NCBI GenBank assembly: GCA_041082215.1
Contig: JBDOIF010000152.1
Span: 1,235-65,234, forward strand
Length of the DNA: 64,000 nucleotides
Origin: Anaerolineae bacterium
GTDB taxonomy: Bacteria; Chloroflexota; Anaerolineae; B4-G1; DUEL01
Direction: 5' to 3'
How positions within the stretch are numbered: position 1 is the first letter of the stretch; each line of letters begins with the position of its first letter. Position numbers and translations under genes: made by a program. Shown here piece by piece: positions 2,828 to 61,753 of the stretch. The notes beneath the pieces are model-generated. The model was not told where the DNA came from and made no database searches. It was given only the letters and a program-made list of their open reading frames with translations.

Positions 2828-2852
2828 GGTTGCTTCCCTTCCCCTTTCACAG

Positions 2853-2858: not shown

Positions 2859-2874
2859 CAGTTACGGAGGGAAA

Positions 2875-10275: not shown

Positions 10276-10322
10276 AGCTCACCTCCTCTGAACGTGAAAC
10301 CTGGAACCTTAACCGGGGTTAT

Positions 10323-10357
10323 CAGACGTCAAACGTCAGACGTCATATGTCGAACGA
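10323..10357. repeat. Tandem heptanucleotide repeat (CAGACGT/CAAACGT, about 5 units), same family as 59150..59238
   Basis: cagacgtcaaacgtcagacgtcatatgtcgaacga, in the etfB / LysM-gene intergenic space. Confidence 0.6.
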
Positions 10358-14119: not shown

Positions 14120-14400
14120 TGGCCGTGCACCCCCCTTCGAACCGCACTGCCCGGCTTGTCGTTGCCGTCCGGCTCCGGGCCGGCACCCCTGCGGCACCCG
14201 GGAGGGACTCTTTACCGTTGCTTCCTTCCGGACCTGGCGGGGTTCGGAGGCTCCCGCCGCGCAGGACCAGCCCCTCAACGCCTTCCGACACCGGCAGTCC
14301 CGTTCAGGCAAGCCCTCGGGGGGGAATTCGACCCCGCTATGGCGGATTGCGGGTACAGGGCACCGCCAGCTCCCCGTCTAGCACGGCCAGAGCTCATCTT
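14120..14400 (-). ncRNA. ffs: Signal recognition particle RNA, long (Bacillus-type) form with Alu domain
   Basis: The minus strand carries the domain-IV motif CAGGTCCGGAAGGAAGCAAC (complement of 14221..14240). The 5' part GGCCGTGCTAGACGGGGAGCTGGCGGTGCCCTGTACCCGCAATCCGCCATAGCGGGGTCGAATTCCC is near-identical in pattern to the B. subtilis scRNA Alu domain, and the 3' GAAGGGGGGTGCACGGCC matches the scRNA 3' end. Ends are approximate. Confidence 0.75.
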
Positions 14401-32153: not shown

Positions 32154-32765
32154 TCAGTCCACCGTGATCCGACCCCGGATCTCCTCGAAGACCGCCGGGC
32201 CAATGCCAGGGACCTCCATCAGCTCTTCCACGCTCTTGAAGGGGCCGTATGTCTCCCGGTATTCGACGATCCGCTGGGCTGTGGAAGGGCCGATGTGGGG
32301 GAGCATTTCCAGCTCCTCAACGGTGGCGATGTTGATGTTTACTATCCCCCCGCTGGCGGAAGCAACCCCGCCGGAAAGAACAGGGATAGGGGGCTCCTCC
32401 CCCACGCGCGGCACGTAGACCTGTTGCTGGTCTCTCAGCTCCTGCGCCAGGTTGATGCGCTCGAGATCGGCTTCGGGCGCCGGACCCCCGGCTGCGCGCA
32501 CGGCGTCTTCCACCAGGCTGCCGGGGGGAAGACGGTAGACCGCGGGCTGCTGCACCGCCCCACAGACGTAAACTCGCAGAGGGAGGGGGGTGGGAGTGGG
32601 GAGGGGGGTGGCCGTGGGGTCAGGGGTGCTGACCTCGATGGGAGGGGCCTGGGGATGGGGGGTGAAGAAGCCCAGCAGGCCGCCTGCGATCAGGCTCAGC
32701 ACAGAGCAGAGGACCAGAAGGCTGCGGTGACGCGCGACGCCGCTCCCCAAATCCGTGTTTTCCAT
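32154..32765 (-). CDS. comEA: ComEA-like DNA-binding protein (tandem helix-hairpin-helix)
   Basis: N-terminal TM; C-terminal VNINIATVEELEMLPHIGPSTAQRIVEYRETYGPFKSVEELMEVPGIGPAVFEEI has HhH motifs. Confidence 0.75.
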   Translation of the reverse strand: MENTDLGSGVARHRSLLVLCSVLSLIAGGLLGFFTPHPQAPPIEVSTPDPTATPLPTPTPLPLRVYVCGAVQQPAVYRLPPGSLVEDAVRAAGGPAPEADLERINLAQELRDQQQVYVPRVGEEPPIPVLSGGVASASGGIVNINIATVEELEMLPHIGPSTAQRIVEYRETYGPFKSVEELMEVPGIGPAVFEEIRGRITVD

Positions 32766-42977: not shown

Positions 42978-43319
42978 CTACTCTACCTCTATGCTTTCCA
43001 CCAGCAATTCCTTGCCCCCCACGGCGATCGGCTGGAGCAGGCCGCACTGAGGGCAGGTCCAATCCGCTCCATCCGGCTCATACTCCGCCCCGCAGTTCAG
43101 ACAACGGAAGCGGGCGGGCACGTGTCGGAAGGCCAGCTCTGCCCCTGCTGCCATCGTATCCCGGCTGAGGAAATCGAAGTAGAACTGAACCGATTCGCCG
43201 ACGATGCCGGAGAGCTCCCCCACGGCCAGGTGGATGCGAAGGATACGATTCGCCCCGGCCTGTTTGGCGTGGGCCAGGGCGATGTCCAGAATGGATTGGG
43301 TTACGGAGAGTTCATGCAT
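42978..43319 (-). CDS. hypA: Hydrogenase/metalloenzyme nickel-insertion protein HypA
   Basis: MHELSVTQSILDIALAHA, C-terminal CLNCG...CPQCG zinc motif. Confidence 0.85.
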   Translation of the reverse strand: MHELSVTQSILDIALAHAKQAGANRILRIHLAVGELSGIVGESVQFYFDFLSRDTMAAGAELAFRHVPARFRCLNCGAEYEPDGADWTCPQCGLLQPIAVGGKELLVESIEVE

Positions 43320-43334
43320 ACGGAATACGGAGCA

Positions 43335-43364
43335 CGGAGTACGTATTGCGTGTTGCGTACTCCG
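43335..43364 (-). terminator. Repeat-derived hairpin (CGGAGTACG / CGTACTCCG) immediately 3' of fdhA
   Basis: cggagtacgTATTGCGTGTTGcgtactccg lies 2 nt after the fdhA stop; TACGGAA/TATTGCG repeat family. Confidence 0.45.
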
Positions 43365-43365
43365 T

Positions 43366-45471
43366 TTACGAAACCGGCTCCACCCGCACCGCGCAGACCT
43401 TGTACTCCGGGATTTTGGCGAGGGGGTCCAGCGCGGCGTGGGTGAGCGCGTTCGCCGCCGCCTCCGCGTAGTGGAAGGGGATGAAGACGACGCCGGGCCG
43501 GATGCGCTTCGTCAGCCGCACCGCAACCTCGATCTCCCCTCGGCGACTCATCACCCGCACCCGCCGAGCGCCGTCCAGGCCGATGCGGGCCGCGTCGTCC
43601 GGATGCATCTCCACATACGGCTCCGGCGCCTCCTGCTCCAGTTTGGGCGACCGGCGGGTCATGGTGCCGGTGTGGAACTGGAACATGGTGCGGCCCGTGG
43701 TCAGGATGAACGGGTACTCCTCATCGGGCAGTTCCGCCGCCTCCTGGAACTCTATCGCGTGGAAGCGGCCCAGGCCTCGGGTGAACTTCTCCTTGTGCAG
43801 GTACGGGGTGCCGGGGTGTTCGGCCGACGGGACGGGCCACTGCAGGGAGCCCTCCCGGTCCAGCCGCTCGTAGGTGACGCCGCCGTAGGAGGGCGCGACG
43901 CGGGCGATTTCAGACATGATTTCGGCGGGGGAGGAGTAGTCCCATTGCGTATTGCGTATTGCGTATTGCGTATCGCGTGCTGCGTGTTGCGTAAGGCGCT
44001 TGGCCAGTTCACAGAGGATTTCCCAGTCGGCCTTGGCCTGGCCCGGCGGGTCCACGGCCTTCCGCACCCGCTGGATGCGCCGGTCGGTGGCGGTGAAGGT
44101 GCCGTCTTTCTCGGCAAACGATGCGCCCGGCAGAACCACGTGCGCCAGTTGTGCCGTCTCCGTCAGGAAGATGTCCTGAACGACCAGGAAGTCCAGTTTC
44201 TCCAGGCACTCCCGCGCGTGGTGGATGTCGGGGTCGGAGAGAAGGGGGTTCTCGCCCATCACGAAGAGGCCCCGCAGGCGCCCCTCCCCTGCCGCGTGGA
44301 CCATCTCCACGACGGTCATGCCAACCTTGTCGGACAACCCCTCCATGCCCCAGGCGGCCTCAAATCTGGCCTTCGCCTCCGGCGAGGTGACGGGCTGGTA
44401 GGCCGGGTAGACGTTGGGGAGGCCGCCCATGTCGCAGGCGCCCTGGACGTTGTTCTGGCCCCGCAGGGGGTTGACCCCGCCGCCAGGGACGCCCAGATTG
44501 CCGGTGAGCATGGCCAGGTTGGCTACGCTCTTGACGTTGTCGGTGCCGGTGGTGTGCTGGGTGATCCCCATTGCATAGAGAATGGCGGCAGGCTTGTTCT
44601 GGGCGTACATCCGCGCCGCGGCGCGCAGGTCCTCCGCTGGGATGCCGGTAATCTCCTCCACCCGCTCCGGCGGGTACTGCTGGACCACCTGCCACATTTC
44701 CTCAAAGCCCTCGGTCCGCTGCCGGATAAACTCCTGGTCGGCCAGTTCCTCGGTGATGATGACGTACATCAGGCCGTTGAGCCAGGCGACATCGGTGCCG
44801 GGGCGGGGGCGCAGGTAGAGGTCGGCCATCCGGCCGATCTGGACCTCGCGCGGGTCGATGACGACAATTTTCGCCCCCCGCTCCTTTGCTTTGAGGACAT
44901 GGCTGGCGATGAGGGGGTGGCCCTCGGTGGTGTTGGAGCCGGTGATCAGGAAGCAGCGGGTGTATTCGCTGAACTCCGGGATGGAGTTAGTCATCGCGCC
45001 ACTGCCGAATGCGGCGGCCAGACCGGCCACCGTGGGGGCGTGTCAGAGACGGGCGCAGTGGTCCACGTTGTTGGTCCTGAAGACGGCGCGGGCCAGTTTC
45101 TGGGCCAGGTAGTTCTCCTCGTTGGTGCACTTGGCGGAGACCAGGAAGCCCAGGGCGTCGGGGCCGTATGTGTCGCGGATGTGGAGCAGCCGATCCGCGA
45201 CCAGGCCCAGCGCCTCGTCCCAGGACGCCTCCCGGAACCCCCCCTGTGTCCCCCCCGCATGCAGGGGGGAGCGGATGAGGGGGGTCGTCAGCCGGTCCGG
45301 GTGGCGGACGAAGGCGGTGGCGTTCCAGCCCTTGATGCAGAGTTTCCCCCCGCTGACGGGGTGCTCCTTCGCCGGCAACACCCCGACGATTTCGCCGTCC
45401 AGCACCTGGATGTAGAGGCCGCATCCGGTGCCGCAGTAGGGGCAGGTAGTGAAGATGTTTCGGTAGTCCAT
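43366..45471 (-). CDS. fdhA: Formate dehydrogenase catalytic subunit (FdhF/FdhA-type), selenocysteine-containing; in-frame TGA at 45043..45045 read as Sec
   Basis: Tracked ORFs 45043..45513 and 43366..45030 are in the same frame and together align with FdhF: CPYCGTGCG...NNVDHCARL-[TGA]-HAPTVAGL (E. coli: CARV-U-HGPSVAGL). Downstream MGITQHTTG, RGQNNVQGACDMG and a C-terminal KVCAVRVEP are molybdopterin-enzyme motifs. N-terminus placed at MDY (45471); the tracked upstream 14 aa are repeat-derived. Confidence 0.85.
43944..43995. repeat. TTGCGTA heptanucleotide tandem array (about 7 units) in frame inside fdhA
   Basis: attgcgtattgcgtattgcgtattgcgtatcgcgtgctgcgtgttgcgtaag, translated as ...[12 protein letters not shown]..., an insertion relative to the E. 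coli FdhF alignment. Confidence 0.7.
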
Positions 45472-45513
45472 AGGGTACTCCGTGTTACGTATTCCGTATT
45501 GCGTGTCCTGCAT

Positions 45514-47193
45514 TCACGCATCCAGACTCTTGAGAAAATCATTCGCTGCTTTTGCCAGTAATCGCGCTCTTTCCTTGAGAAACTGCTCGTAGTGCTCAAT
45601 GCTCCATTGCCCTTCTAACTGGGCCTTATTTCCAACAGCTTGCGCAAATGAATCGGGGATCAAGTGCTCAAGAAGTAACTGTTCGGAAATGTTGAATTGG
45701 GCCAGGTATTTTGCAGGTGGTTTTCCAGACAACCGGTTCACGTTTGTGCTTTCGTTCAGTACCGTGATGTTTGCCAGAGCATGAATCCGGTCATCAGGGA
45801 CACCGGCACTTCTCAGCACGCTGCGAGGATAAACGTGGTGCCACTGGGGTTCAAACCCACTCACGATTAAAGCACCTGTCCTATCATAGCCAATACGGGT
45901 TTGGTCTACCCAATCCCGCGCTTCTCGGTGAAACACCACCAGATAAAGCATCAGACGCAAGAAACGGCTACCAGCGCAGTCATACCGGCTCAGAAACTCT
46001 TCGGGGGTAATTTCGGAAGGCGCGTGTAAGCGCCCGTATAGGTTCTTTAAAGCCTGATCAAAGTCCTGCGCTTCAGTAATTGCGCGCACGTCCTCGTTCA
46101 AACTGGTAATCGCTGAACCGCTGTAACGGCCATCCCAGTTTGCCAGAAGAAACCAGCGAACAGCCTTGCTAAATCGGTAATTTTTCGTATCTTTCCAGCG
46201 GTGATGTAGCACGAAGAGAGGGATCAGACTGTTAACCGAGGGGAGCAACTTTACTGACATAATCCCGACCTCGGCCAGCCGTTTTCGAACTTCCACGATT
46301 ACTTCTCTGGTTTGTTGCCAAACAACGCTCAGGTTTTGAGGATTCCAAAAGTCTTTAGGGACTTCCTTCAGTCGGGCTCGCCCTTTACCAATGCCAGTCA
46401 TTGTGCGGACGAAGATGCCGGCATCCAGTCCCCATCCTATATCCTCCAACTCGCCGCAAAAGGGAAGATATTCCTCTCGCACCCAGCCTGGATTCCGTAC
46501 AGCGGCCAGCGCCAGAACAACATCGGCTTCCTTCACTCGCGTCCCTTCTTGATTCAACCGAGCGAAAATCTCGGCCACGTCTTCCACTTCATGGTTGATC
46601 CGAATTATGGGAATATCTCGCTCACGGATTTGCCACAAGCGCTGTAAGCGAGCATGGACTTTTGCAAACAGGTCCATCATCTGGGCAGGCTCAGGCTGAA
46701 TGGATGCCACAATCTCTTGAGCCAGTAGAGTTAGTGTCTCAACGTTCTCTGTGCTCAGTACACGGCGCAGGCTAATCCAGTGTGGATCGCGGCGACGGAT
46801 AGGGTTCGGCAGAGCAAACTCCAGATGGTCTTCGTCAGGGAGAAGATTTACCATCACATCATACCGCTCCAGGGCCCTGTTCCATTCCTGTGCGCTATCC
46901 CACCAGTATGGCTTTTGCCCTAAAAGCAGGCAAAGAGCAACCGTCCGTTGTTGCCCATCTACAATCCAAAGCGAAGCCTGCGTACCCTGGGCCGTTTTGG
47001 ACTCCTGGTACGAATACGAAGAGGAGTCCCAGAGCAAAAACGAACCGATCGGATAATCGCGATAGAGTGACTCCGCCAGTTTCTTGACCTGCTCCGGATC
47101 CCAAACGAATTCTCGCTGAAATTCAGGAATATCCACGCTCTTGTTGACCGCCTGTTTGACAATCTCCCGAACTTTCTGTTGCTCAAGTGCCAT
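45514..47193 (-). CDS. GmrSD-family type IV restriction endonuclease (DUF262 ParB-like + DUF1524 HNH-like)
   Basis: DUF262 N-terminus (IPEFQREFVW...DGQQR) and DUF1524 C-terminus (His/Asn motifs); markedly AT-richer than its surroundings. Confidence 0.75.
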   Translation of the reverse strand: MALEQQKVREIVKQAVNKSVDIPEFQREFVWDPEQVKKLAESLYRDYPIGSFLLWDSSSYSYQESKTAQGTQASLWIVDGQQRTVALCLLLGQKPYWWDSAQEWNRALERYDVMVNLLPDEDHLEFALPNPIRRRDPHWISLRRVLSTENVETLTLLAQEIVASIQPEPAQMMDLFAKVHARLQRLWQIRERDIPIIRINHEVEDVAEIFARLNQEGTRVKEADVVLALAAVRNPGWVREEYLPFCGELEDIGWGLDAGIFVRTMTGIGKGRARLKEVPKDFWNPQNLSVVWQQTREVIVEVRKRLAEVGIMSVKLLPSVNSLIPLFVLHHRWKDTKNYRFSKAVRWFLLANWDGRYSGSAITSLNEDVRAITEAQDFDQALKNLYGRLHAPSEITPEEFLSRYDCAGSRFLRLMLYLVVFHREARDWVDQTRIGYDRTGALIVSGFEPQWHHVYPRSVLRSAGVPDDRIHALANITVLNESTNVNRLSGKPPAKYLAQFNISEQLLLEHLIPDSFAQAVGNKAQLEGQWSIEHYEQFLKERARLLAKAANDFLKSLDA

Positions 47194-47233
47194 AGATGTT
47201 TCTCCTTCCGTAAGTTGGCATCCAGCAGAAGCC

Positions 47234-47428
47234 TCATTCCTGCTCCGTTCGCCACGCCAGAATCTGGTGCTGAAGTTCCACAGAGGTATAGCGAGAACCC
47301 AGGTCCCTTAAGGCACCGGCCCATTCAAACCCTGGATGAGCCCGGACCTTCTTTTCACGCTTTGCCAGCAGAAACTCAATAAAATCCCGCACTTCCTGCC
47401 GGATGTCCGCAGGAAGCATCCGATGCAT
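47234..47428 (-). CDS. DUF2281-like small protein (antitoxin-like)
   Basis: 64 aa with QEVRDFIEFLLAKREKK, the DUF2281 pattern. Confidence 0.45.
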   Translation of the reverse strand: MHRMLPADIRQEVRDFIEFLLAKREKKVRAHPGFEWAGALRDLGSRYTSVELQHQILAWRTEQE

Positions 47429-47447
47429 TATCTCACCTCCGCTATCT

Positions 47448-47520
47448 GCCCCTCCGCCAGCGTCAGCGACAGCGGCGGGGCGGCGAAGAGGTCGGCGCCG
47501 GGTGCGTAGCCCAACAAATC
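47448..47520. repeat. 73-bp direct repeat, copy A (about 88% identical to 48104..48176)
   Basis: cccctccgccagcgtcagcgacagcggcggggcggcg...cccaacaa; the first 38 nt are identical to copy B. Confidence 0.8.
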
Positions 47521-47523
47521 GGC

Positions 47524-47772
47524 CTATGCTGGAGAGAGAGCGACTTCCAGGGTTCTCATCCGGCGGTCAACCTCCTCCAGCATATCCTGAATCGCTCTGA
47601 TCGCCTCCTCGTCAAAAAGCACTTCTCCGCACTGGTCACATACCCAGGCCGGGACAGCATCCACAATGAGATGATACCCCTTGCGCGTGACCGTATAACT
47701 GACCGGTTTTCGGACCAGCGTCCCTTTACAATAGAAGCATTCCATGACAATCACCTCTTTCGGGTGCGCCAA
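47524..47772 (-). CDS. YgiT-type (MqsA-like) zinc-finger antitoxin
   Basis: MECFYCKG...VCDQCGEVLFDEEA is the YgiT-type zinc-finger motif. Confidence 0.7.
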   Translation of the reverse strand: MAHPKEVIVMECFYCKGTLVRKPVSYTVTRKGYHLIVDAVPAWVCDQCGEVLFDEEAIRAIQDMLEEVDRRMRTLEVALSPA

Positions 47773-48083
47773 TCAGGTTCCCAGTAGTCCTCGCTGGGCA
47801 GGTAAGCAGTGATGATTGCCAGATAATCCTTCTTCGGCGCACAGACTACGTGCACCGGACGACCCATATGCCCCCAACCCAGCATCAGGCAACTATGCCC
47901 CCGGGCATCCTCCGGATAGTCTTCTATCACTTCGCCGTAGAGAACCACCGCGCGAACTTCATCCGGAGAAATCATCCGGTCAGGAGCATTCATCTGATGT
48001 AAGGCGTGCGGCAGGTAAAGAATCCGCTTCGCAGCAGCTTCTCTAACCTTCTCCAGAATGCTCCTATGGCTCTCGGGTCTCAT
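47751..48083 (-). CDS. DUF4258-family toxin-like protein
   Basis: MRPESHRSILEKVREAAAKRILYLPHALHQMNAPDRMISPDEV...; its ATG (48083..48081) overlaps the TGA of the upstream fdhB-like gene by 1 nt. Confidence 0.6.
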   Translation of the reverse strand: MRPESHRSILEKVREAAAKRILYLPHALHQMNAPDRMISPDEVRAVVLYGEVIEDYPEDARGHSCLMLGWGHMGRPVHVVCAPKKDYLAIITAYLPSEDYWEPDWRTRKR

Positions 48084-48913
48084 CACTCCATACCTACCAT
48101 CGGCCCCTCCGCCAGCGTCAGCGACAGCGGCGGGGCGGCGGCGAGGTCCGCTCCTGGCTCGTACCCCAACAACTCCCCCACATCGCGCCGGATCAGGTCG
48201 TAGAGGACGGTCAGCGGGATGTGGGCCGGGCAGGTCAGTTCGCACTGGCGGCAGCCGACGCAGCGGGCCGCCATGTGCATGGCCCGGATAAGGTGGAAGG
48301 ACGGGAAGGGCGGGGCCAGCACCCCCGGCTCCACCCAGAGCGGGTCCTCCAGCGCGCAGGCCTCGCAGAAGCACTCCGGGCAGATGTTGCGGCAGCCGTA
48401 GCACTTGATGCATTTGGCGAACTGCTCCCGCCAGAAGGCCCAGCGCTCCGCCCAATCCATACTCTCGTACCGGGCGATGATGGGGTTGGGCGAGCCAGCG
48501 AGAGCTGGCGTCCCCAGCGCCACGGCTTGAGGCCAGCCCTCCGTCTTCGGGAAGGGGGCATCGCAGTGGCACGCCTCCGCCTCCTCCGCGGTGCAGGCCA
48601 CCCCCAGGATGTACAGGCGCTCGGGGTCTATCTGATTCCGCTTGGCCATCTCCACCAGCGCGCGCAGATCGCAGGCACGGGCGACAATGCCGAAGCGGGC
48701 CTGCGGGTAGCGCTTCTGGAGCAGGGAGACGACGGACGCCAGAGGGTAGCGAGGGGAGAGAACCAGTTCGGAGAGGTCATCTCCCTGGCGGAAGAGATAC
48801 GGCGCGGTGCCCACAGCCGTCCGCCGCAGGCCGACAACGCCGTCCAGTTCAGGAAGTTTCTCCGCCACGTGGGCGCGCAGGGTGTCCAAAAGGTCGTTAT
48901 CGGTCATCGGCAA
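48083..48913 (-). CDS. FrhB/FdhB-family iron-sulfur protein (putative formate dehydrogenase beta / electron-transfer subunit)
   Basis: An FrhB_FdhB-like core (FGIVARACDLRALVEMAKRNQIDPERLYILGVAC) and two C-terminal Cys clusters (CIKCYGCRNICPECFCEAC; CVGCRQCELTCP). Its last ~25 codons are encoded by repeat copy B. Confidence 0.5.
   Translation of the reverse strand: MPMTDNDLLDTLRAHVAEKLPELDGVVGLRRTAVGTAPYLFRQGDDLSELVLSPRYPLASVVSLLQKRYPQARFGIVARACDLRALVEMAKRNQIDPERLYILGVACTAEEAEACHCDAPFPKTEGWPQAVALGTPALAGSPNPIIARYESMDWAERWAFWREQFAKCIKCYGCRNICPECFCEACALEDPLWVEPGVLAPPFPSFHLIRAMHMAARCVGCRQCELTCPAHIPLTVLYDLIRRDVGELLGYEPGADLAAAPPLSLTLAEGPMVGME
48104..48176. repeat. 73-bp direct repeat, copy B, forming the 3' end of the fdhB-like gene
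   Basis: See copy A; together they bracket the YgiT/DUF4258 cassette. Confidence 0.8.
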
Positions 48914-48929
48914 ATACTCCCCATAGAGA

Positions 48930-49316
48930 TTATCGGAGTCCCAGCAATCGGCGGGCGAACCGCCGTACCTTTCCGGCTATTTGCACGGCTATCCTTGCTT
49001 CTTCCGGAAGGGGTTCTTCGCCGGGATAGCGTACTTCTACAGCATAAGCAGAGAGCCGATCCAGGTCATCCGGATGAATGGGTACGATGATCCCTGCCTG
49101 TTCACACAAAGTACCCAGCGCTGCCAGGTCGTGTGTCTTCGGGAAATCCTGCCCATGGAAAACCAGCAGGGCTTTCAGATATTTCTCAGCGCATTGTTGT
49201 GCATGAAAGCAGGCGCCATACAATAATGGCCTTTTGCGACGTATAGCAGATTGGGCCAGCCAGTAGTCCTCCTCGGCCCGGGTTGCCCACGAGGCAGGGT
49301 CAAGAATGGCGCTCAT
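48930..49316 (-). CDS. HEPN-domain protein
   Basis: HEPN helices with the ...EVRYPGEE motif; paired with the upstream nucleotidyltransferase. Confidence 0.65.
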   Translation of the reverse strand: MSAILDPASWATRAEEDYWLAQSAIRRKRPLLYGACFHAQQCAEKYLKALLVFHGQDFPKTHDLAALGTLCEQAGIIVPIHPDDLDRLSAYAVEVRYPGEEPLPEEARIAVQIAGKVRRFARRLLGLR

Positions 49317-49677
49317 ACAGGGTCAAGCCCTTTTCCAGAATTTCTCTAATGAAGAAATCGCCTTCCGCCAGAGCCTGCTGGATTTCCGCGGGCGTTCTGA
49401 CCAGAATATCCACCGGAAAGGGGCGGGGGCGCAGCAGGCGGGAGACCTTCAGGTACCGCTCGACGGGGGGGGCCACGCTCTCCATCACCACCAGCAGGTC
49501 CACATCGCTATCAGTTGTGGCTCCACCCCGAGCATAGGAACCAAAGAGGACGATTTTCTCTGGCTGCAGCGCATCGGCCAGCCGCCGGATCAGCGCGTGA
49601 AAGGCTCGGGCGTCCACTTCTGGAAACCCCCGGGCCCGAATCGGGGTGGGAAGATCTACAGCCGCTCGTTCAGCCAT
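49300..49677 (-). CDS. Nucleotidyltransferase (MNT) antitoxin
   Basis: LFGSYARGGATTDSDVDLLVV; start uncertain (set at MAERAAV). Confidence 0.65.
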   Translation of the reverse strand: MAERAAVDLPTPIRARGFPEVDARAFHALIRRLADALQPEKIVLFGSYARGGATTDSDVDLLVVMESVAPPVERYLKVSRLLRPRPFPVDILVRTPAEIQQALAEGDFFIREILEKGLTLYERHS

Positions 49678-50063
49678 TCCGAGTGCTCCCCCAGCCAGCG
49701 CCGGTAAGCCGAAGCGACCGCCTCCAGGTCGGTCAGGCGCTGGCTGCAAATCTCGTACAATTCCTCGGGACTCACCTCGTGGTAAAAGTGAACCAGCCGG
49801 TTTCTGTAGCCAGCCAGTATGCGCAACAGAGCCGCTTCTTCGGGAGAAAGAACAGCCTGCTCTTCCAGCCGAATAGCGATCTCCCAGTATTCGCTTACAC
49901 CGGTCCCGAAGCCCTTCGCCAGAATATACCGGCCCAGGTCCAGCAGGGCCTCCAGCGCCCGGTGCAGGCAGGATTCCGCTGTCCAGAGATTGCGCCGATC
50001 GGCGAAAAAAGCATCCCGGTCGGTCAGGGGCAGAGAGCGGATTTCCCCGATCATCCGCTCCAC
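49656..50063 (-). CDS. hepT: HepT-like (DUF86) HEPN toxin
   Basis: RNLWTAESCLHRALEALLDLGRYILAK...YRNRLVHFY; R-x4-HxY motif. Confidence 0.75.
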   Translation of the reverse strand: MERMIGEIRSLPLTDRDAFFADRRNLWTAESCLHRALEALLDLGRYILAKGFGTGVSEYWEIAIRLEEQAVLSPEEAALLRILAGYRNRLVHFYHEVSPEELYEICSQRLTDLEAVASAYRRWLGEHSEWLNERL

Positions 50064-50109
50064 CCAGGCCAGACGATCCGCACTACACGCCGGGAAAGGG
50101 TGCCAGGAG

Positions 50110-50538
50110 TCATACCGGTTTTCCCAGGATCAACGCGATGCGCTCCCGCTCCAGCGGGGCGAGATCCCCCGCACGGCGCAGGACGTAGAGGTCGTACTCG
50201 TCGGCGTCGTCCTCGTCGCGGGCGTGGAGGCGCTCACCCCGGATAATCTCCGCTGCCAGGAAGGGGTCCGCGTCGTCCAGCGAGACCAGGTCCACCCTAT
50301 GGACGCCGAAGAGGTCCTCCAGGGCAATCGCCAGCCGGACCTTGTCGTGGACGGAGAGCCGGAGTCCCCGCGCGGGCTTCACCCCGATGTCCAGGTCGGA
50401 CGGGCCCGGGGTCAGAGCCGGGAGTCCCCCCTCCAGCCACGCCCGGGCCTCCCCGGCCCGGCTGCCGAAGGCATAGAGGATGTCCACGCCGAAGGATTCG
50501 CAGAGTTGCCGGAGCCGCACGCTCCGGTCCTCGTTCAT
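50110..50538 (-). CDS. mntA: MntA-like nucleotidyltransferase antitoxin
   Basis: ILYAFGSRAG...SDLDIGV. Confidence 0.75.
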   Translation of the reverse strand: MNEDRSVRLRQLCESFGVDILYAFGSRAGEARAWLEGGLPALTPGPSDLDIGVKPARGLRLSVHDKVRLAIALEDLFGVHRVDLVSLDDADPFLAAEIIRGERLHARDEDDADEYDLYVLRRAGDLAPLERERIALILGKPV

Positions 50539-50552
50539 TTCTCCATCTCCTC

Positions 50553-50762
50553 CTACTTCCGGTGACGGGTGGCCTCAAGTTCCTCTGGACTCCAGCTCGC
50601 CTCCGGCGGTCGCCTACCCACCACTGTTTCCCGTACCGGCACAATCATCACCACCGGCAGACCGTCCCGCTCCACGATGAAGGTCTCGCCGTCCCGATAC
50701 ACCCGCCGGATCACCTCCCCAAACCGGTTCTTCGCCTCCGTCGCCGAAATGACCGTGGGCAT
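50553..50762 (-). CDS. Phd/YefM-family antitoxin (apparent orphan)
   Basis: MPTVISATEAKNRFGEVIRRVYRDGETFIVERDGLPVVMIVPV. Confidence 0.7.
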   Translation of the reverse strand: MPTVISATEAKNRFGEVIRRVYRDGETFIVERDGLPVVMIVPVRETVVGRRPPEASWSPEELEATRHRK

Positions 50763-50855
50763 CGCTTCGCCTCCTTCCAGATTGGCTAACACAATCCAAT
50801 TATAGCCGACGTTGCCCAATCTGGTAAGCGCGCGTAGCGCGAGATTTATCTTGCG

Positions 50856-51275
50856 CTACAGGCCCAGTTCCTGCTCGATCGGCCCCAGGGCGCGGATGGT
50901 CTCCACGAACTCGGCGGTCACCTGGGCAAACTTGGGGGCCTCCGCCGAGGAGACCCAGTCCAGTCGCAGCCGCTGGGGGTTGATGCCCACGTAGGAAAGC
51001 AGGTTACGCAGCAGGGGCATCCGTTTGGCGGTGCGGTGATTACCGTTGATGTAATGGCAGTCGCCGATGTGGCAGCCCAGCACCAGCACCCCGTCGGCGC
51101 CAGCGCGAAAGGCCCGCAGCACCATTTCCGGCGACACCCGCCCGGAGCACATCACCCGGATGGGCAGGACGTTGGGCGGCGACTTCATCCGCGCGATGCC
51201 CGCGTTATCGGCTCCGGCGTAGGAGCACCAGTTGCACAGAAAAGCGACAATGCGAGGTTGAAAAACTTCGCTCAT
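50856..51275 (-). CDS. mvhD: MvhD/FlxD-type hydrogenase iron-sulfur subunit (HdrA-associated)
   Basis: IVAFLCNWCSYAGAD...VMCSGRVSPEMVLRAF..GADGVLVLGCHIGDCHY. Confidence 0.85.
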   Translation of the reverse strand: MSEVFQPRIVAFLCNWCSYAGADNAGIARMKSPPNVLPIRVMCSGRVSPEMVLRAFRAGADGVLVLGCHIGDCHYINGNHRTAKRMPLLRNLLSYVGINPQRLRLDWVSSAEAPKFAQVTAEFVETIRALGPIEQELGL

Positions 51276-51301
51276 AGCGTACTCCGTATTGCGTATTCCG
51301 T

Positions 51302-51802
51302 TTATGACATGGGCACTTCGCTCAGGAGTTCAGAAAGTTCGGCATCAGGGTCGGTGGTAGAGTAGAGATAGGGCGCGCTACTTTCACACAGTTGTACGAT
51401 ACCGGTGGTTTCCCGCTCCTCAGGAATAATAGAGAGGAGCAGGCGGACAATCTGGGTCAGCAGGTGGAGCCGATGAGCCAGGACAGCCTCTTTCAGGCCA
51501 TGGCGCCCCTCGTAGTACCAGGTTCGGGCCTCGCGGGCGGAGCCCAGGGCGTACTCGTAGAATCGGGCCCGCTCCTTCCCGGACCGGCGGCTGTACCCTT
51601 CGGCGATGTTGGCGGCGATAGAACCCAGGGCCCGATATAACTGGTCGGCCAGGCCGCGCATCCGGGCATCCTCAGCCAGCACCGAAACATCGTGCCAGCC
51701 CAGGTCGGCAGCGAAGAGGGCCAGCCGGTACACCCGCATCTGCCAGAGCGGATCCGCCGTAATCTCCGACGGCACGCTCTGCAACCACTCCTCGTGCGTC
51801 AT
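51302..51802 (-). CDS. Four-helix-bundle protein (TIGR02436 / 23S-rRNA-IVS-protein family)
   Basis: MTHEEWLQS...YRLALFAADL...LGSIAANIAEGYSRRSGKERARFYEYALGSAREARTWYYEG is characteristic of this family; the tracked N-terminal 24 aa are repeat-derived. Confidence 0.7.
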   Translation of the reverse strand: MTHEEWLQSVPSEITADPLWQMRVYRLALFAADLGWHDVSVLAEDARMRGLADQLYRALGSIAANIAEGYSRRSGKERARFYEYALGSAREARTWYYEGRHGLKEAVLAHRLHLLTQIVRLLLSIIPEERETTGIVQLCESSAPYLYSTTDPDAELSELLSEVPMS

Positions 51803-51825
51803 CGCCCACCTCCAACGGAACATGG

Positions 51826-51870
51826 AGTACGGAATACGTGCTGCGTACTGCGTATTCCGTATTCCGTGCT
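51826..51870. repeat. TACGGAA-family palindromic repeat hairpin between the 4HB gene and hdrA
   Basis: ggagtacggaatacgTGCTGCGTACTGcgtattccgtattccgtgctcc. Confidence 0.6.
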
Positions 51871-51877
51871 CCACGCG

Positions 51878-53833
51878 CTACACCCAGACGCCCGCTAAGA
51901 GGCCCTCTATCTGCGCCACAATCTGCTCGTCGGTAAAGTGAAGGCCGGTGATGGCATGGGATGGGCAGGTGGCGACGCAGGTGCCACATCCCTGACACAG
52001 CGCCGGGTTTACCTGCGCTTTCCCTTCCACGCGGGAGATCGCGGAGTAAGGGCAGGCCAGGATGCACTCACCGCACCCCACGCAGGCCTCCCGATCCACC
52101 ACGGCGACGGTGGGCGATATGGTGACCTCGCCCTGGTTGAACAACCGCACCACCTCCAGCGCCGCCGCCCCGGCATGGGCCACCGTGTCGGGGATGTCCC
52201 GTGGCCCCTGGGCACAGCCGGCCAGGAAGACCCCCGCCGTGGCCGTCTCCACCGGCCGCAGTTTGGGGTGCGCTTCGGCAAACCAGCCGTCGGGTGTGCG
52301 GCCCAGGCCGAACAACGGGGCGATGCGGTCCACATCGGGCTGCGGCTCGATGGCCGACTCCAGGATCACCAGGTCCACGTCCACAAACACCAGCCGTCCC
52401 AGGTTGGCATCCTCTCCCTTCACGCGGAGTTTGCCATCCGGCATGACTTCCACCTCGGCTCCCTTGCCCCGGACGAAGACGACTCCCTCCTCCTGCACCC
52501 GCTCGTAGAACTCCTCATAGGCCTTGCCGAAGGCCCGCATATCCATATAGAAATCGTACACCTCGGCTCCGGTCTTATCCCGCACCTGGTGGGCGTGCTT
52601 GAGGGCGTACATGCAACAGATGCGGGAGCAGTAAGGGTGAGCGTTCTCGTCGCGGCTGCCGACGCAATGGATGATGGCCACCCGCTGGGGCTTCTTCCCC
52701 TCGGCGGTGACGATCTCCCCCCCGGTGGGGCCGGTGGCGCTGGTGAGCCGCTCAAACTGTAGCCCGGTGATGATATTGGGCGAGAGGCCGTAGGAATACT
52801 GCGGAAGTTTCGCGGGGTCCCACATCGCAAACCCGGTCGCCACGATGATGGCGCCGACCTGAACTTCGAGCAGTTGATCCTCCTGGGTGTAATCAATCGC
52901 CCCGGTGGGGCAGAACTTCTCGCAGACCTTACACTTGCCCTGGGTAAAGAACCGGCAGTTCTCCCGGTCAATCACCGGGATGTTCGGGATGGCCTGGGCG
53001 AAGGGGCGGTAGATGGCCTTCCGCTTCCCCATCCCCGCCTCGAAGGCTGTATCCACCACTTTGGTGGGGCACTTCTCCTGGCAGAGGCCACAGCCGGTGC
53101 ACTTCTCCTCATCCACCGACCGCGCCCGTTTGCGGATGCGGGCGGTGAAATGGCCCACATAGCCGGAGACCTCTTCAACTTCACTGTAGGTCAGGAGGGT
53201 GATGTTGGGATGCCGACCGGCATCCATCATCTTGGGGCCCAGGATTCAGGTACTACAGTCCAGCGTGGGGAAAGTCTTATCCAACTGGGCCATATGGCCG
53301 CCGATGGATGGCTCCCGTTCCACCAGATAGACCGGGTAGCCCGCGTCAGCGATGGAGAGGGCGGCCTGGATGCCGGCGATGCCGCCGCCCACCACCAGCG
53401 CCGCTTTTGTCACCGGCTCCCGCCGGGGCTCCAGCGGGGCCTGGTATGCCACCCGGAAAACCGCCGACCGCACCAGCCGCTTCGCCTTCTCCGTGGCTGC
53501 CTCTTTATCATCGGTGATCCAGGAGACATGCTCGCGGATGTTGGCCATCTGGAAGAAATAGGGGTTGAGCCCGGCGGCCCCCAGGGCTCGCTGGAAGGTC
53601 GTCTCGTGCATCCGGGGGGTGCAGGACGCCACCACGACCCGGTTCAGGCCCAGGTTGCGGATGTCCTCCTGGATCATCAACTGGCCCGGCTCGGAGCACA
53701 TGTACTTGTACACCCGGGCGACGGCGACGCCAGGCAGTTTAGAAGCCATCTCTGCGACCGCCTCCACATCCACCGTGGCCGAGATATTGATGCCGCATTC
53801 ACAGATGTAGACGCCGATTCGGGGTTGCTCCAT
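51878..53833 (-). CDS. hdrA: Heterodisulfide reductase subunit A, selenocysteine-containing paralog 1; in-frame TGA at 53246..53248
   Basis: Tracked ORFs 53246..53971 and 51878..53230 are in one frame: ...GGGIAGIQAAL...KTFPTLDCST-[TGA]-ILGPKMMDAGRHPNITLLTYSEV..., which aligns with the HdrA consensus KTFPTLDCS-x-C-ILxPKMVEVxRHPNI with TGA at the Cys position. Also an FAD Rossmann motif, four or more ferredoxin Cys clusters, and an N-terminal YICECG. Start set at MEQPRIGVY. Confidence 0.85.
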
Positions 53834-53865
53834 AGCGAGCGCTCCTTCCATTTCGGTCTCAGACA

Positions 53866-55065
53866 TCAGGACTCTGCAGCCTGAATAGACTGCCAGAGCA
53901 GTTCCATTACATCCATTGCCCGCACGCGGATGCGGTTCTGCCGCGCTCCTTCCTGGAGGGTGCGCTTGCACTGCTGGCAGGCGGACGCCAGGATGCTGGC
54001 TCCTGTCGCCTGGATCTGGGCCAGCCGTTTTGCCGCGACGCCCATTGTGACAGCAGGGTCAGCCATCTCTACATCTCCGCCGCCGCCACAGCACAGCGCG
54101 CTCTGGCGAGACATAGACATCTCTCTCAATTCCAGCCCCGGAATGCGGGTCAGTATTTCCCGGGGTGGATCATATACGCCGCTCTTGCGCCCCAGGTCAC
54201 AGGGGTCGTGATAGGTCACCACGCCTTCCACTGGTCCCAATGGCGGGGCGGATTGTGCCATTCGTTCTGCCAGGAACTCGGTAGCATGCTGGAAATGGAG
54301 CCCTCGCACATCCGCCATCTCCGGATACAGGTGGGACCAGGCGTAGTAACAGGACGGACAGGTGAAGACCACCCTTTCCGCGCCCACCCTGCGCACCTGT
54401 TCCAGGTTGTGTCGGGCGATTTCCGCCATCTGATCCCGCAGTCCCGCGACATAGAGCGGGTATCCGCAACACCACTCGTCTCCGCCCAGGGTGGTAAACT
54501 CCACCTCTGCCCGCTCCAGCACTTTGACCGTTGCCTGAGGGATGGAGTACGCGCGCGGGTAGAACGACCCCACGCATCCCACAAAATAAACGACCTCCGC
54601 CGTTCGCCGCAGGGGTTGCACGCCCACCGGTGGGTCGGGCATATTCTGGCTCCATACCAGACGGTTGGCGTTCTCGTCGCCGGAGATGTTGTACTGGCTG
54701 GTGACGGTCTGGCTGACTCGCAGCAGCAGTTGGGGGACTTCCAGGCCCTGGCGCTGGACGTACTCCCGAAGGGCCACCATCGTATCCGTGATCTGGATGC
54801 CCCGGGGGCAACGGACCTGGCAGGACTTACAAACCGTGCAGAGCCAGAAGGTGCGGCTGGTCAATACCTCCGCCGTTAGTCCCAGCTGCACCATTCGCCA
54901 CAACTGACGCGGGGTATAATCCATCGCGTAGGAGGTGGGACAGGAAGCGGAGCATGTGCCGCACTGGATGCAGGAGAGAATCTTTTCCCAGCGGCCGGGG
55001 GTCACCTGCTGAGCAAACGTCCGGTCCGCCTGGGCGAGGTCCAGGATTTCAGGGGGGTTGGTCAT
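53866..55065 (-). CDS. HdrC-HdrB fusion protein (HdrD/GlpC-like; 2x[4Fe-4S] + two CCG domains)
   Basis: N-terminal CIQCGTCSASCP...CTVCKSCQVRCP; C-terminal CCG motifs (DEWCCGYP..., LCCGGGG). Confidence 0.8.
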   Translation of the reverse strand: MTNPPEILDLAQADRTFAQQVTPGRWEKILSCIQCGTCSASCPTSYAMDYTPRQLWRMVQLGLTAEVLTSRTFWLCTVCKSCQVRCPRGIQITDTMVALREYVQRQGLEVPQLLLRVSQTVTSQYNISGDENANRLVWSQNMPDPPVGVQPLRRTAEVVYFVGCVGSFYPRAYSIPQATVKVLERAEVEFTTLGGDEWCCGYPLYVAGLRDQMAEIARHNLEQVRRVGAERVVFTCPSCYYAWSHLYPEMADVRGLHFQHATEFLAERMAQSAPPLGPVEGVVTYHDPCDLGRKSGVYDPPREILTRIPGLELREMSMSRQSALCCGGGGDVEMADPAVTMGVAAKRLAQIQATGASILASACQQCKRTLQEGARQNRIRVRAMDVMELLWQSIQAAES

Positions 55066-59149: not shown

Positions 59150-59238
59150 GTCGGGCGTCAAACGTCAGGCGTCAAACGTCAAACGTCAAACGTCAGGCGT
59201 CAAACGTCAAACGTCAAACGTCAAACGTCAGGCATCAA
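59150..59238. repeat. Tandem array of about 13 GTCAAAC / GTCAGGC heptamers
   Basis: gtcgggcgtcaaacgtcaggcgtcaaacgtcaaacgtcaaacgtcaggc...gtcaggcatcaacc, between mvhD2 and lplA. Confidence 0.85.
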
Positions 59239-59656
59239 CCGCTGCTCGCATCTCCAGCGGGCCCAGCCGGCGCACCTTTTCGGTGAACTCCCGCACCGTC
59301 TGGGCAAACAGCTCCCCCTCCGAGGAAGAGACCCACTTGACCAGGAATCGCTCCGGCTCGATGCCGGTGAACGCCAGCAGGGCCTTGAGGACCGGCATTC
59401 GGCGGGCGGTGCGGTGGTTGCCGGTGGCGTAGTGGCAGTCGCCGATATGGCAACCCAGCACCATTACCCCATCGGCTCCCTCTTTGAAAGCGCGGATCAC
59501 CAGCTCCGGCGCGACCCGTCCCGAGCAGGGGACGCGGATGATCTTGAGGTTGGGAGGGTACTTCAGCCGGGTCGCCCCGGCCAGGTCCGCTCCGGCATAA
59601 CTGCACCAGTTGCAGAGGAAACCGATGATCTTCGGCTCGTAAGCCTGCTCGCTCAT
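59228..59656 (-). CDS. mvhD: MvhD/FlxD-type iron-sulfur subunit, paralog 2
   Basis: IIGFLCNWCSYAGADLAG...VPCSGRVAPELVIRAF..GADGVMVLGCHIGDCHY. Confidence 0.85.
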   Translation of the reverse strand: MSEQAYEPKIIGFLCNWCSYAGADLAGATRLKYPPNLKIIRVPCSGRVAPELVIRAFKEGADGVMVLGCHIGDCHYATGNHRTARRMPVLKALLAFTGIEPERFLVKWVSSSEGELFAQTVREFTEKVRRLGPLEMRAAVDA

Positions 59657-59665
59657 CCCAGCCTC

Positions 59666-59715
59666 CTACGGAATACGCAGTACGTACTACGTATTGCGTG
59701 TCGCGTATTGCGCCC
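59666..59715. repeat. TACGGAA/TATTGCG-family repeat overlapping the hdrA2 3' end
   Basis: ctacggaatacgcagtacgtactacgtattgcgtgtcgcgtattgcgc; it encodes the last residues (AMRAQYATRNT) of the tracked HdrA2 ORF. Confidence 0.6.
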
Positions 59716-61678
59716 GCATCGCGAAGATCGCCCCCATCATCTCCGAAACCAGTTGCCGGTCGGTGAAGTGACGGAGGGTGATCGCTTTGGAAGGGCAGGC
59801 TCCGGCGCAGGTGCCGCACCCCTTGCAGAGCGCATCGATCACATGGGCGACCCTGCGCTCTTTCAGGTATTCGATGGCCGCGTACGGACAGGACTGGATA
59901 CACTGCCCGCAGCCGGTGCACATCAGCTCGTCCACGAGGGCGGTGGCCGACTCTACCTTCACCTCTCCCTGGCCGATGAGGGAAAGGACCCGCGCCGCCG
60001 CCGCCGAGCCCTGGGCCACCGAGTCCGGGATGTCCTTCGGCCCCTGAGCGCACCCGGCGACGAGCACCCCGTCGGTCATCGTCGCCACCGGGTCCAGCTT
60101 GGGGTGCTTTTCCCTGAACCACCCGTCGGCGTCGGTGCTGATGCCGAAGAGACGGGCCACTTCCCGGCTGTCGTGGCGCGGTTCCAGGCCGATCGCCAGC
60201 ACCACCATATCCACCGGCAGCCGTCGCTGCCGCCCCACCAGGGAATCGTCGAACTGGACGACCAGTTTTCCCTCCTCCTCCGGCCCGCGTGCAGCGTCCG
60301 TCACCTGGGCCACCTTCCCGCGGATGAAGTGGATCCCCTCATCCAGCATCCGGTGGTAGAACTCCTCATATAGCTTGCCGGGGGCGCGAATGTCAATATA
60401 GAAGTTATATACCTCGGCGTGGGTCTTATGGCGGATCAGGTGGGCCAGCTTCAGGGAGTACATACAGCAGACCCGGGAGCAGTATTCGTGGTACTTCTTG
60501 TCCCGGCTGCCCACGCAGTGGATGATGGCCACCTGTCGGGGGACCGTTTCCCCATCCCGCAGGACCACCTTGCCGCCGGTAGGACCAGCCCCGCTGAGCA
60601 TCCGCTCCATCTCCAGGCTGGTGAAGACGTTGGGGAAACGGCCGTAGCCGTACTGGGGAATCCGTCGGGCGTCGAAGGGATCGAAGCCGGTGGCGAGGAT
60701 GATGTTGCCCACCTGGACCTCCAGGATGGTGTCCTGCTGGTTGTAGTCTATGGCGCCGGTGGGGCAGACCTTTTCACAGAGGCGGCAACGGCCTTTGGTA
60801 AACCAGAGGCAGTTGTCGCGGTCAATGACGGGGACGGGGGGCACTGCCTGGGCGAAGGGGCGGTAGACCGCCTTCCGATACCCCAGCCCCGCCTCGTAGG
60901 CGGCGTCAACGACTTTCGTGGGGCACTTTTCCTCACACGTACCGCATCCGGTGCACTTCTCTGCATCCACCGACCGGGCCCGAACGCGGATGCGGACCAC
61001 AAAGTTGCCCACATAGCCGGAGACGCTTTCCACCTCGCTGTAGGTCAGGAGATTGATGTTGGGATGCCGACCGGCATCCATCATTTTGGGCCCGAGAATT
61101 CAGGCACTACAGTCGAGCGTGGGGAAGGTCTCATCCAGTTGAGCCATCCGGCCGCCGATGGAAGGCTCCCGTTCCACCAGATAGACCGGGTAGCCGGCGT
61201 TGGCCAGCTCCAGGGCCGCCTGGATGCCGGTGATCCCCCCGCCGACGACCAGCGTGGCCGGGTTGATGCGCACCCGGTTTTCCTCCAGGGGCTGGTGGTG
61301 GCGCACCCTTAGGACCGCCGCCTCGACCAGGGCTTTTGCCTTCCCGGTGGCGATCTCGGGGTCATCGTGGACCCAGGAACACTGTTCGCGGATGTTGGCC
61401 ATCTCGAAGAAGTAGGGGTTGAGACCTGCCTCTGCCACAGCTCGCTGGAAGGTCGGCTCGTGCATCCGCGGGGTGCAGGAAGCCACCACCACCCGGTCCA
61501 GTCCCAGCTCCTGAATGTCCTTTTTGATCAGCTCCTGGCCCAGGCTGGAACACATGAAGCGGTAGTCGCGGGCCACGGCCACCCCCGGCAGGTCGGCGGC
61601 CCAGCGGGCCACCTCCGCCACGTCTACCACACCGGCGATGTTGGAACCACAGTGGCAGATGTAGACGCCGATCTTCAT
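59687..61678 (-). CDS. hdrA: Heterodisulfide reductase subunit A, selenocysteine-containing paralog 2; in-frame TGA at 61100..61102
   Basis: Tracked ORFs 61100..61708 and 59687..61084 share a frame: ...ETFPTLDCSA-[TGA]-ILGPKMMDAGRHPNINLLTYSEV...; the same architecture as paralog 1 (about 75% identity by eye). Start set at MKIGVY. Confidence 0.85.
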
Positions 61679-61753
61679 CGAGCACCCCCATTTGTAGTTG
61701 TGCGGCACTTCGCTACGCTTCGTGCCTCAATACGAACACCCAACCGTTTGTAG

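Follow-up and report, generated by a model that had tools for sequence, protein, structure and literature searches.

The hdrA-mvhD-fdhB-fdhA operon of a thermophilic Anaerolineae/Thermoflexales lineage appears to be a recombination hotspot; we studied it in a stretch of 64,000 nucleotides of contig JBDOIF010000152.1 (Anaerolineae bacterium), referred to as a whole as the 64-kb window. Three junctions of this operon hold alternative, co-oriented and tightly packed cassettes of toxin-antitoxin (TA) or defence genes, which differ among close relatives. At one of them, between fdhB and fdhA, a two-gene DUF4258-YgiT cassette is bracketed by a direct repeat, the upstream copy of which is also the 3' end of fdhB. 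A preliminary description of this DNA had read the repeat as the attachment (att) site left by site-specific integration of a small TA cassette, mobilized in trans or integron-like. Comparison with related loci suggests instead that the repeat is probably a recombination scar, formed when two alternative TA alleles were joined at the fdhB hotspot, and that it is unlikely to be an att site.

The direct repeat at the 3' end of fdhB

A repeat search of the window places the two copies at 47444-47520 and 48099-48175 (77 nt, 87% identical, spacing 655), with a longest perfect run of 38 nt (P=0.006 if the 10 differences fall randomly among the 77 sites). The 37-nt core of the repeat has exactly two occurrences in 64 kb, even with three mismatches allowed, where none is expected from 100 shuffles. 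The operon genes and the inserts between them all lie on the minus strand, and the fdhB-fdhA region reads as follows, in the direction of transcription:

48083..48913, minus strand, fdhB-like 4Fe-4S protein, 276 aa, core gene (Pfam Fer4 families)
48083..48178, minus strand, repeat copy B, functional last 31 codons and TGA of fdhB; reads GELLGYEPGADLAAAPPLSLTLAEGPMVGME, then stop
47751..48083, minus strand, DUF4258 toxin-like protein, 110 aa (PF14076, E=2e-22)
47524..47745, minus strand, YgiT/MqsA-type zinc-finger antitoxin-like protein, 73 aa (TIGR03831, E=1e-14; PF15731 under its cutoff)
47428..47523, minus strand, repeat copy A, pseudo fdhB 3' end, 31 in-frame codons and TAA; reads ADLLGYAPGADLFAAPPLSLTLAEGQIAEVR, then stop
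47234..47428, minus strand, DUF2281/VapB-like antitoxin, 64 aa (PF10047, E=5e-12; NF050009 TA_VapB weak)
47214..47237, minus strand, PIN/VapC remnant of 8 codons, MRLLLDAN (reading of the open reading frame; homology to the related locus L029 stops at 47214)
45514..47193, minus strand, GmrSD-like DUF262 protein, 559 aa, GC about 50% (PF03235, E=1e-27; PADLOC HEC-05 and PDC-M55C)
45472..45513, minus strand, conserved fdhA leader with 7-nt repeats (AATACGG-like), right-hand edge of the variable slot
43366..45471, minus strand, fdhA, molybdopterin formate dehydrogenase, with an in-frame TGA at 45043-45045 (DHCARL-TGA-HAPTVAG)

Both copies of the repeat translate, in the fdhB frame, as a 32-codon in-frame unit. 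The TGA of copy B and the ATG of DUF4258 overlap by 1 nt, copy A begins immediately behind the TAG of YgiT and in the same frame, and the TAA of copy A again overlaps the ATG of DUF2281 by 1 nt, so that the tail of copy A, GGAGGTGAGATAATG, contains the Shine-Dalgarno sequence and the stop/start overlap for DUF2281. Past the 38-nt core, on both sides, the copies continue to resemble each other as collinear coding sequence that includes synonymous differences; of the eight differing codons in the diverged 5' part, four are purely synonymous. The preliminary description was thus accurate as to the repeat itself, its role as the fdhB 3' end, its position around the DUF4258/YgiT pair, the upstream copy that supplies the FdhB C-terminus (as seen by translation) and the 1-nt overlap with DUF4258. 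It had also considered that the 73-mer might be a dispersed repeat, which does not hold: within the window and the relatives it occurs solely as fdhB 3' ends. An exact degenerate 42-mer of the core gave no match against metagenome contigs, and an Rfam scan of the window at gathering thresholds found no family at the repeat.

The 655-bp insert encodes DUF4258 and YgiT only. These adjacent small genes, with a spacer of 5 nt, match both TA families and are predicted from these matches to form a type II pair of toxin-like and antitoxin-like protein. Downstream, the eight codons MRLLLDAN are what the GmrSD block has left of the PIN/VapC partner of DUF2281; the full partner is present in the related locus L006 (PF01850, E=4e-14). 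The GmrSD-like gene is a candidate type IV restriction or defence gene, judged by its domain. The start of fdhA is probably at 45471 (MDYRN) rather than at 45513.

Alternative alleles and the origin of copy A

For comparison, 30 related loci were gathered (L-numbers) and the window proteins mapped onto each. In about 30 related loci fdhB sits between mvhD and fdhA, and in L017, L019, L023 and L024 the operon has the compact form hdrA-mvhD-fdhB-fdhA, with spacers of approximately 10-20 nt. Junction lengths range from 13 to 1088 nt for hdrA-mvhD, from a short overlap to 2692 nt for mvhD-fdhB and from 8 to 2614 nt for fdhB-fdhA; the window is the most loaded locus overall, with 605, 1945 and 2614 nt, respectively. 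The hdrA-mvhD slot measures 13-80 nt in L002, L008, L022, L023 and L024, and at the mvhD-fdhB slot the genes of L017-L019, L023, L024 and L027 are separated by about 10 nt or overlap slightly, with the length rising to 2.7 kb in L007. At fdhB-fdhA, nine loci are empty, with 8-19 nt from stop to start (L005, L013, L014, L017, L019, L020, L023, L024, L025). Against these short junctions the genes between mvhD and fdhA are indeed insertions, as had been proposed, and the empty site that the preliminary description suggested looking for exists. Such a site with a single fdhB end fits an att-site island and the other models equally well. Homology of the window to the empty-site alleles ends at 48107, right behind ...CTGGCGGAG (LTLAE), and L005, L013 and L014 have a homologous fdhA leader.

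The filled alleles at this junction differ in content. In T1, DUF4258-YgiT is present without a repeat (L001, L004, L011, L030; L007 retains YgiT alone), and in T2, DUF2281 follows straight after fdhB, also without a repeat (L003, L006, L009; L010 with a remnant). The composite T3, fdhB-DUF4258-YgiT-pseudo-fdhB-DUF2281, is found in the window and in L029; L028 starts in the same way, but a Vut_1 transporter gene cuts its DUF2281 after about 8 codons. Other contents are DUF2283, a HicB-like gene and a 772-aa membrane protein. The DUF4258 homologues at the same junction (L028, L029, L030, L001, L004, L011) are 75-95% identical.

The functional fdhB 3' ends of the T2 loci L009, L003 and L006 match copy A at 93-95% identity, and those of L009 and L003 match copy B at 90%; counted against L009, L003 and L006, copy A has 4-5 mismatches in 75 nt and copy B 7 in 72. 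In addition, L003 and L009 have, at their fdhB tail/DUF2281 junction, sequence that is collinear with the tail of copy A and the beginning of DUF2281 in the window. Because of this identity and collinearity, copy A can be recognized as the fdhB end that normally precedes DUF2281. At its 5' edge it meets the YgiT stop without homology.

YgiT and copy A meet at ...CCAGCATAG/GCCG..., a joint that the window shares exactly with L029, which belongs to a different metagenome-assembled genome, and the joint sequence CCAGCATAGGCCG is found in L029. This bears on the possibility that the assembly of a metagenome fused two co-existing strain variants. The window appears to be metagenome-derived, its only exact protein match (for the GmrSD-like protein, 100% identical) being to a 103.5-kb NCBI contig and short Logan contigs, and both allele types are present in related populations. 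However, the same joint occurs in the independent metagenome-assembled genome (L029, 80-86% identity) and in a contig from a separate run (L028), and the YgiT end and fdhB position -93 have no k-mer in common. Since the L029 and L028 assemblies are independent, an artefact is rejected as extremely improbable. Identity between the window and L029 at the DNA level is 85% for fdhB, 80% for DUF4258, 86% for YgiT and 86% for DUF2281; because this divergence is even across the genes, the composite is best seen as one old event that was later inherited or transferred as a unit.

In both relatives copy A has decayed. In L029 about 50 nt of it are gone and what remains runs in frame into DUF2281, and in L028 it is degenerate, with its 5' 50 nt scrambled. 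This has to be considered for the idea that the repeat is kept for a function, as a leader peptide, for translational coupling of DUF2281 or as a regulatory RNA element. Copy A is in frame over 31 codons with possible TTG starts, it ends as TAATG on the DUF2281 start with GGAGGTGA 5 nt before that ATG, and its tail ...GCGGAGGTGAGAT.AATG is preserved in L029, all of which would agree with such a function. Nevertheless, only the last ~20 nt are common to the window and L029, no Rfam family matches, and a function would account for the retention of the tail but not for the origin of the duplication. As an explanation of the repeat we therefore consider it improbable.

Site-specific integration would have the DUF4258/YgiT cassette carry an attP that mimics the fdhB 3' end and enter through a tyrosine/serine or IntI-like enzyme supplied in trans, with copy B as attL and copy A as attR. 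It would suit direct repeats that bracket exactly the two-gene module around an identical 38-nt core with diverged flanks, and also the restored C-terminus, the empty sites, the sharp edges and a cassette GC below that of the core (47-60% for the inserts, 64-71% for the core genes). In contrast to what attL and attR at every insertion would give, L001, L004, L011 and L030 carry the same cassette at the same junction with one fdhB 3' end. The preliminary description had named relatives with the same gene content but no repeats as evidence that would overturn its proposal; these four loci are of that kind, so that this expectation is borne out in a part of the relatives, and the proposed att site is not supported. 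Copy A goes with DUF2281 (L003, L006, L009) and not with the cassette, and where a second copy is present it is not conserved (half deleted in L029, degenerate in L028). The collinear coding similarity beyond the core, and the duplication of other sequences in the scars at other loci described below, likewise speak against it.

Nor was a recombinase that is linked to the cassette or encoded by it found. The search covered the 10 operon proteins, 39 large open reading frames and one small MNT reading frame of the 64-kb window and gave no integrase, resolvase, transposase or Phage_integrase domain, as the preliminary description had noted for an integrase. In integrons each cassette closes on its 3' side with an attC site, an imperfect palindrome of roughly 57-141 nt. 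No attC-like inverted repeat was seen at the cassette ends, where the gaps between reading frames are 0-5 nt or overlaps and leave no room for one. No core site is common to the cassette boundaries of the window: the repeat core occurs only at its two positions, with three mismatches allowed, and the other boundaries share nothing. The integron-like alternative of the preliminary description is thus not borne out, with neither IntI nor attI, attC or a common boundary core in the window. The integron core GTTRRRY was also sought at the left edge of the GmrSD-like gene, where TTACGG, TTATGA and TTACCC do not fit. Taken together, we regard site-specific integration as highly unlikely.

Parallel scars and the proposed recombination route

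Scars of a similar kind recur at other loci, and duplicate different sequences. In L001 (1-571) a 64-nt direct repeat, 97% identical and with a spacing of 357, consists of the 3' half of Phd; the second Phd copy runs into a different Phd C-terminus and sits within a truncated PIN_3 gene. In L026 (2581-3072) the fdhB gene is truncated at codon 134; behind it the last ~30 codons of mvhD stand a second time, and there the contig stops. L033 (1-2080; Logan SRR34265293) reads fdhB 3' end, 27 nt, a GmrSD-like gene, the heptamer leader and fdhA codons 1-42, which are joined directly to codons ~64-110 of DUF4258 before the contig stops; it is a further composite allele with a duplicated stub of a core gene. 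Truncated modules and stubs of anchor genes are therefore seen repeatedly (the PIN remnant and the Phd-PIN_3 gene of the window, L001, L026, L033, L028), and the composite allele has one homologous boundary (copy A/T2) and one non-homologous joint (the YgiT stop), as in displacement arrays.

The content of the slot is decoupled from the fdhB tree (neighbour-joining with bootstrap). L029, a T3 locus, and L013, which is empty, group as sisters (bootstrap 100%); their sequences agree at 94.7% over mvhD and fdhB as far as ...CTGGCGGA and show no relationship beyond it. L030 has a distant fdhB (75% at the amino acid level), yet its cassette is as similar as in much closer relatives. Strict co-divergence of cassette and fdhB was considered and rejected (L030, fdhB 75% and DUF4258 78%, versus L001, fdhB 87.5% and DUF4258 75%). 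Homologues of the GmrSD-like protein, with 68-77% identity, occur across many thermophile phyla. A ComEA-like protein (SLBB and HHH_3) is encoded at 32154-32765; by its domains it hints at natural competence, and DNA uptake is therefore plausible.

These observations are consistent with a route in which arbitrary-ended pieces of the orthologous operon of relatives enter through a homologous crossover in a core gene on one side and an illegitimate join on the other, that is, by homology-facilitated illegitimate recombination or a topologically equivalent single-crossover event. Clean double crossovers would swap alleles, empty ones included, and one-sided events would pile up cassettes, with older ones cut short and core-gene stubs left behind. 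In the case of the window, the parents would be an fdhB-DUF4258-YgiT-fdhA allele and an fdhB-DUF2281-PIN-fdhA allele, T1 entering a T2 genome or the reverse, with the crossover in shared operon sequence and the illegitimate join between the YgiT stop and a position 93 nt before the fdhB stop. The product would read fdhB (copy B)-DUF4258-YgiT-pseudo-fdhB 3' end (copy A)-DUF2281-PIN, with copy B as the working C-terminus and copy A as a stub that came with DUF2281 or remained before it. Later, the GmrSD-like gene would have entered beside the fdhA leader and reduced PIN to 8 codons. The tail of copy A would now give DUF2281 its ribosome-binding site and stop/start coupling, which may explain why the tail persists, and the direct repeats could permit loop-out of the 655-bp TA module.

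The same topology would result from a RecA-dependent, Campbell-type insertion of a circle that carried the fdhB 3' end together with DUF4258-YgiT or DUF2281-PIN, by a single crossover at the fdhB end. The 38-nt perfect tract could then be the region of crossover or heteroduplex, and existing direct repeats would loop out such circles. This, however, needs a prior circle and hence a prior repeat, and it leaves the scars inside unrelated genes unexplained (PIN in L001, fdhB codon 134 in L026, DUF4258 in L033). Though sequence alone cannot separate it from the join of two linear alleles, we think it unlikely.

Several points weigh against a scar from joined alleles. Copies A and B share TTGTTG (two Leu codons), which is seen in no relative; gene conversion between the copies probably explains both this and the 38-nt tract, yet it is an extra assumption in a model drawn from sequence comparison. 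In a three-way comparison of copy A, copy B and the relatives, the informative sites are too few to distinguish donor from recipient. In the window, L032 and L033 the GmrSD-like gene adjoins the fdhA leader on the right each time, and on its left stand the PIN remnant (window), a truncated HicB-like gene (L032) or the fdhB stop (L033); even so, all three contexts have almost the same left edge of the block, approximately 21 nt before the ATG. More generally, the cassette edges are trimmed very cleanly to the boundaries of reading frames, which is unexpected under purely random illegitimate joins unless selection trimmed the spacers later. Most of the relatives are represented by short contigs (metagenome or unitig), and those of L026, L028 and L033 end near their scars. 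Finally, the view of 64 kb leaves room for a trans-acting recombinase that may be encoded elsewhere in the genome.

In a wider and rather doubtful extension, the Hdr/Mvh/Fdh operon would be a landing pad common to an order of thermophilic Chloroflexota, with TA and restriction genes riding on random-ended operon fragments between lineages and stubs kept for their translation signals and internal homology. The homology of the stubs may let cassettes loop out, reshuffle and re-target, as a recombinase-free cassette system in an operon of energy metabolism. In a bolder version, a trans-acting recombinase may recognize the ...PPLSLTLAE core of fdhB.

Relation to known systems and other features of the window

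Homology-facilitated illegitimate recombination was reported by de Vries and Wackernagel (2002; PMC122324) and Prudhomme et al. (2002; PMC122325) and for conjugation in E. coli (PMC3240628). As in these cases, there is one homologous anchor and one non-homologous join, the joint is arbitrary, pieces of the anchor are duplicated or truncated, and neither a dedicated recombinase nor an att site is needed. In contrast to them, the process is deduced here from comparative sequence only and concerns uncultured thermophilic Chloroflexota, with the relatives' orthologous operon as the donor and with events stacked repeatedly at three junctions of one operon.

Sequential displacement is known from type VI secretion system (T6SS) effector-immunity modules in Vibrio cholerae (PMC5361080), from C-terminal displacement in Rhs proteins (PMC2935791) and from the orphan cdiA-CT/cdiI modules of contact-dependent growth inhibition (CDI; PMC3150448). 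Like the operon studied here, these arrays have a conserved upstream anchor gene, newcomers that push older modules downstream and truncated orphans, some of which keep an anchor-homologous stub that is usable for further recombination. Their anchor, however, serves toxin delivery, whereas the anchor here is metabolic (a FdhB-like ferredoxin subunit), the passengers are TA and restriction-like genes functionally unlinked to it, and, the last 6-10 residues apart, the variability does not lie in a domain of the anchor protein. The minimal mobile elements of Neisseria (PMC3082526, PMC1538595) are similar in that alternative whole-gene cassettes lie between the same conserved genes, with homologous recombination in the flanks and no mobility genes; in our case the sites lie within an operon with start/stop overlaps, and there are composite alleles with illegitimate joints as well.

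Integrons and TA-rich superintegrons resemble the locus in their co-oriented, small, promoterless cassettes, many of them TA pairs, behind an upstream promoter, with newer cassettes displacing older ones, but they differ by IntI, attI, attC and a common recombination site, none of which is present in the window. Islands in the 3' ends of tRNA or protein genes share the direct repeats of the 3' end that flank the insert and the upstream copy that keeps the gene intact; unlike them, the locus has no integrase in the window and an insert of only 655 bp, and the repeat is missing from other occupied sites and unconserved where present. The locus is thus another example of a known process, and no new mechanism. 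What is unusual is the setting, in which a metabolic operon with two probable selenoproteins is the anchor for unrelated TA and restriction-like passengers in operon orientation.

The movement of small TA and defence genes without mobility genes of their own is poorly documented beyond the Neisseria elements and the Rhs, CDI and T6SS arrays. The loci compared here provide a natural series in uncultured hot-spring Chloroflexota, of empty sites, single-cassette and composite alleles and decaying stubs, in which cassettes accumulate inside an essential-looking, selenoprotein-encoding energy operon without breaking it. The series also advises caution, as the restoration of a gene's 3' end by a direct repeat is not in itself evidence for an att site of the integrase type.

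The part of the operon upstream of fdhB carries the following genes, in the direction of transcription:

51878-53971, minus strand, hdrA, with an in-frame TGA at 53246-53248 (LDCST-TGA-ILGPK)
51302-51874, minus strand, four-helix-bundle gene inserted between hdrA and mvhD, with 7-nt repeat arrays on both sides (TIGR02436, '23S rRNA intervening sequence protein' family)
50856-51275, minus strand, mvhD, core operon gene
50553-50819, minus strand, Phd fused to a C-terminal remnant of PIN_3 (Pfam and NCBIfam)
50110-50538, minus strand, MntA (Pfam and NCBIfam)
49656-50063, minus strand, HepT (Pfam and NCBIfam)
49300-49749, minus strand, MNT (Pfam and NCBIfam)
48930-49316, minus strand, HEPN (Pfam and NCBIfam)

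Pfam, NCBIfam and PADLOC agree with the earlier gene list between fdhA and mvhD (GmrSD, DUF2281, YgiT, DUF4258, fdhB-like, HEPN, MNT, HepT, MntA, Phd). FdhB-like homologues number 691, all from Anaerolineae, Thermoflexales or other Chloroflexota metagenome-assembled genomes, and in some cases the source annotation reads 'formate dehydrogenase subunit beta' or 'ferredoxin'. Exact matching of the FdhB-like protein to recorded proteins gave nothing. As called, the MNT and HepT reading frames overlap by 94 nt (49656-49749), and the MNT start is probably further downstream. In the reading frame at 50553-50819 the N-terminal part of Phd (to ...MIVPVRET) is joined to the last residues of PIN_3 (...SPEELEATRHRK), and the PIN_3 tail '...SPEELEA.RHR' agrees with the representative of cluster C7; the toxin has therefore been deleted, leaving a chimeric orphan. 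The four-helix-bundle gene is present in the window, L005, L007, L013, L014 and L016 and missing in L002, L008, L022, L023 and L024, and may be a small mobile unit in its own right.

The in-frame TGA codons of fdhA and hdrA are probably selenocysteine codons. In every relative the N- and C-terminal parts of fdhA lie 15 nt apart, with the TGA break at the same place, and the Rfam scan of the window gave no match to a selenocysteine insertion sequence (SECIS) model. Between 43000 and 54200 there are fewer terminator-like sites than in shuffles and one promoter-like site (50827-50799), which indicates neither breakage of the operon nor co-transcription.

Period-7 arrays with various units (AATACGG-like, CGTCAAA, GCTGGTT and others) lie at many intergenic sites, and we take them to resemble the short tandemly repeated repetitive (STRR) heptamer repeats of cyanobacteria. 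ACGGAATACG, with at most one mismatch, has 23 occurrences against 1.9 expected. The arrays are located as follows:

43318-43365, 45475-45504, 51278-51301, 51829-51867 and 59156-59230, window
59668-59699, 27886-27920, 10322-10356 and 26704-26741, window
5539-5601 and 5935-5990, L001

Such arrays stand on either side of the four-helix-bundle gene, and the fdhA leader consists of them even in L005, L013 and L014, where the slot is empty. A further array, ATTGCGT x7 at 43944-43993, lies within the coding sequence of fdhA and adds 12 in-frame codons where others have LGAAGF; it is shorter in L007 (5 extra codons) and absent from all other relatives.

A second, paralogous hdrA-mvhD pair with a split hdrA reading frame lies at 59228-61708, with tight junctions and no TA or defence inserts, and the 10.7-copy CGTCAAA array at 59156-59230 is situated just downstream of it. 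On the plus strand at 2830-3599, housekeeping genes surround a further MNT (PF01909) and, behind it, a probable HEPN partner (judged by eye), so that the Fdh operon is not the only place with TA pairs. The only Rfam match in the window is the bacterial large signal recognition particle RNA at 14123-14386, minus strand (RF01854, 172 bits).

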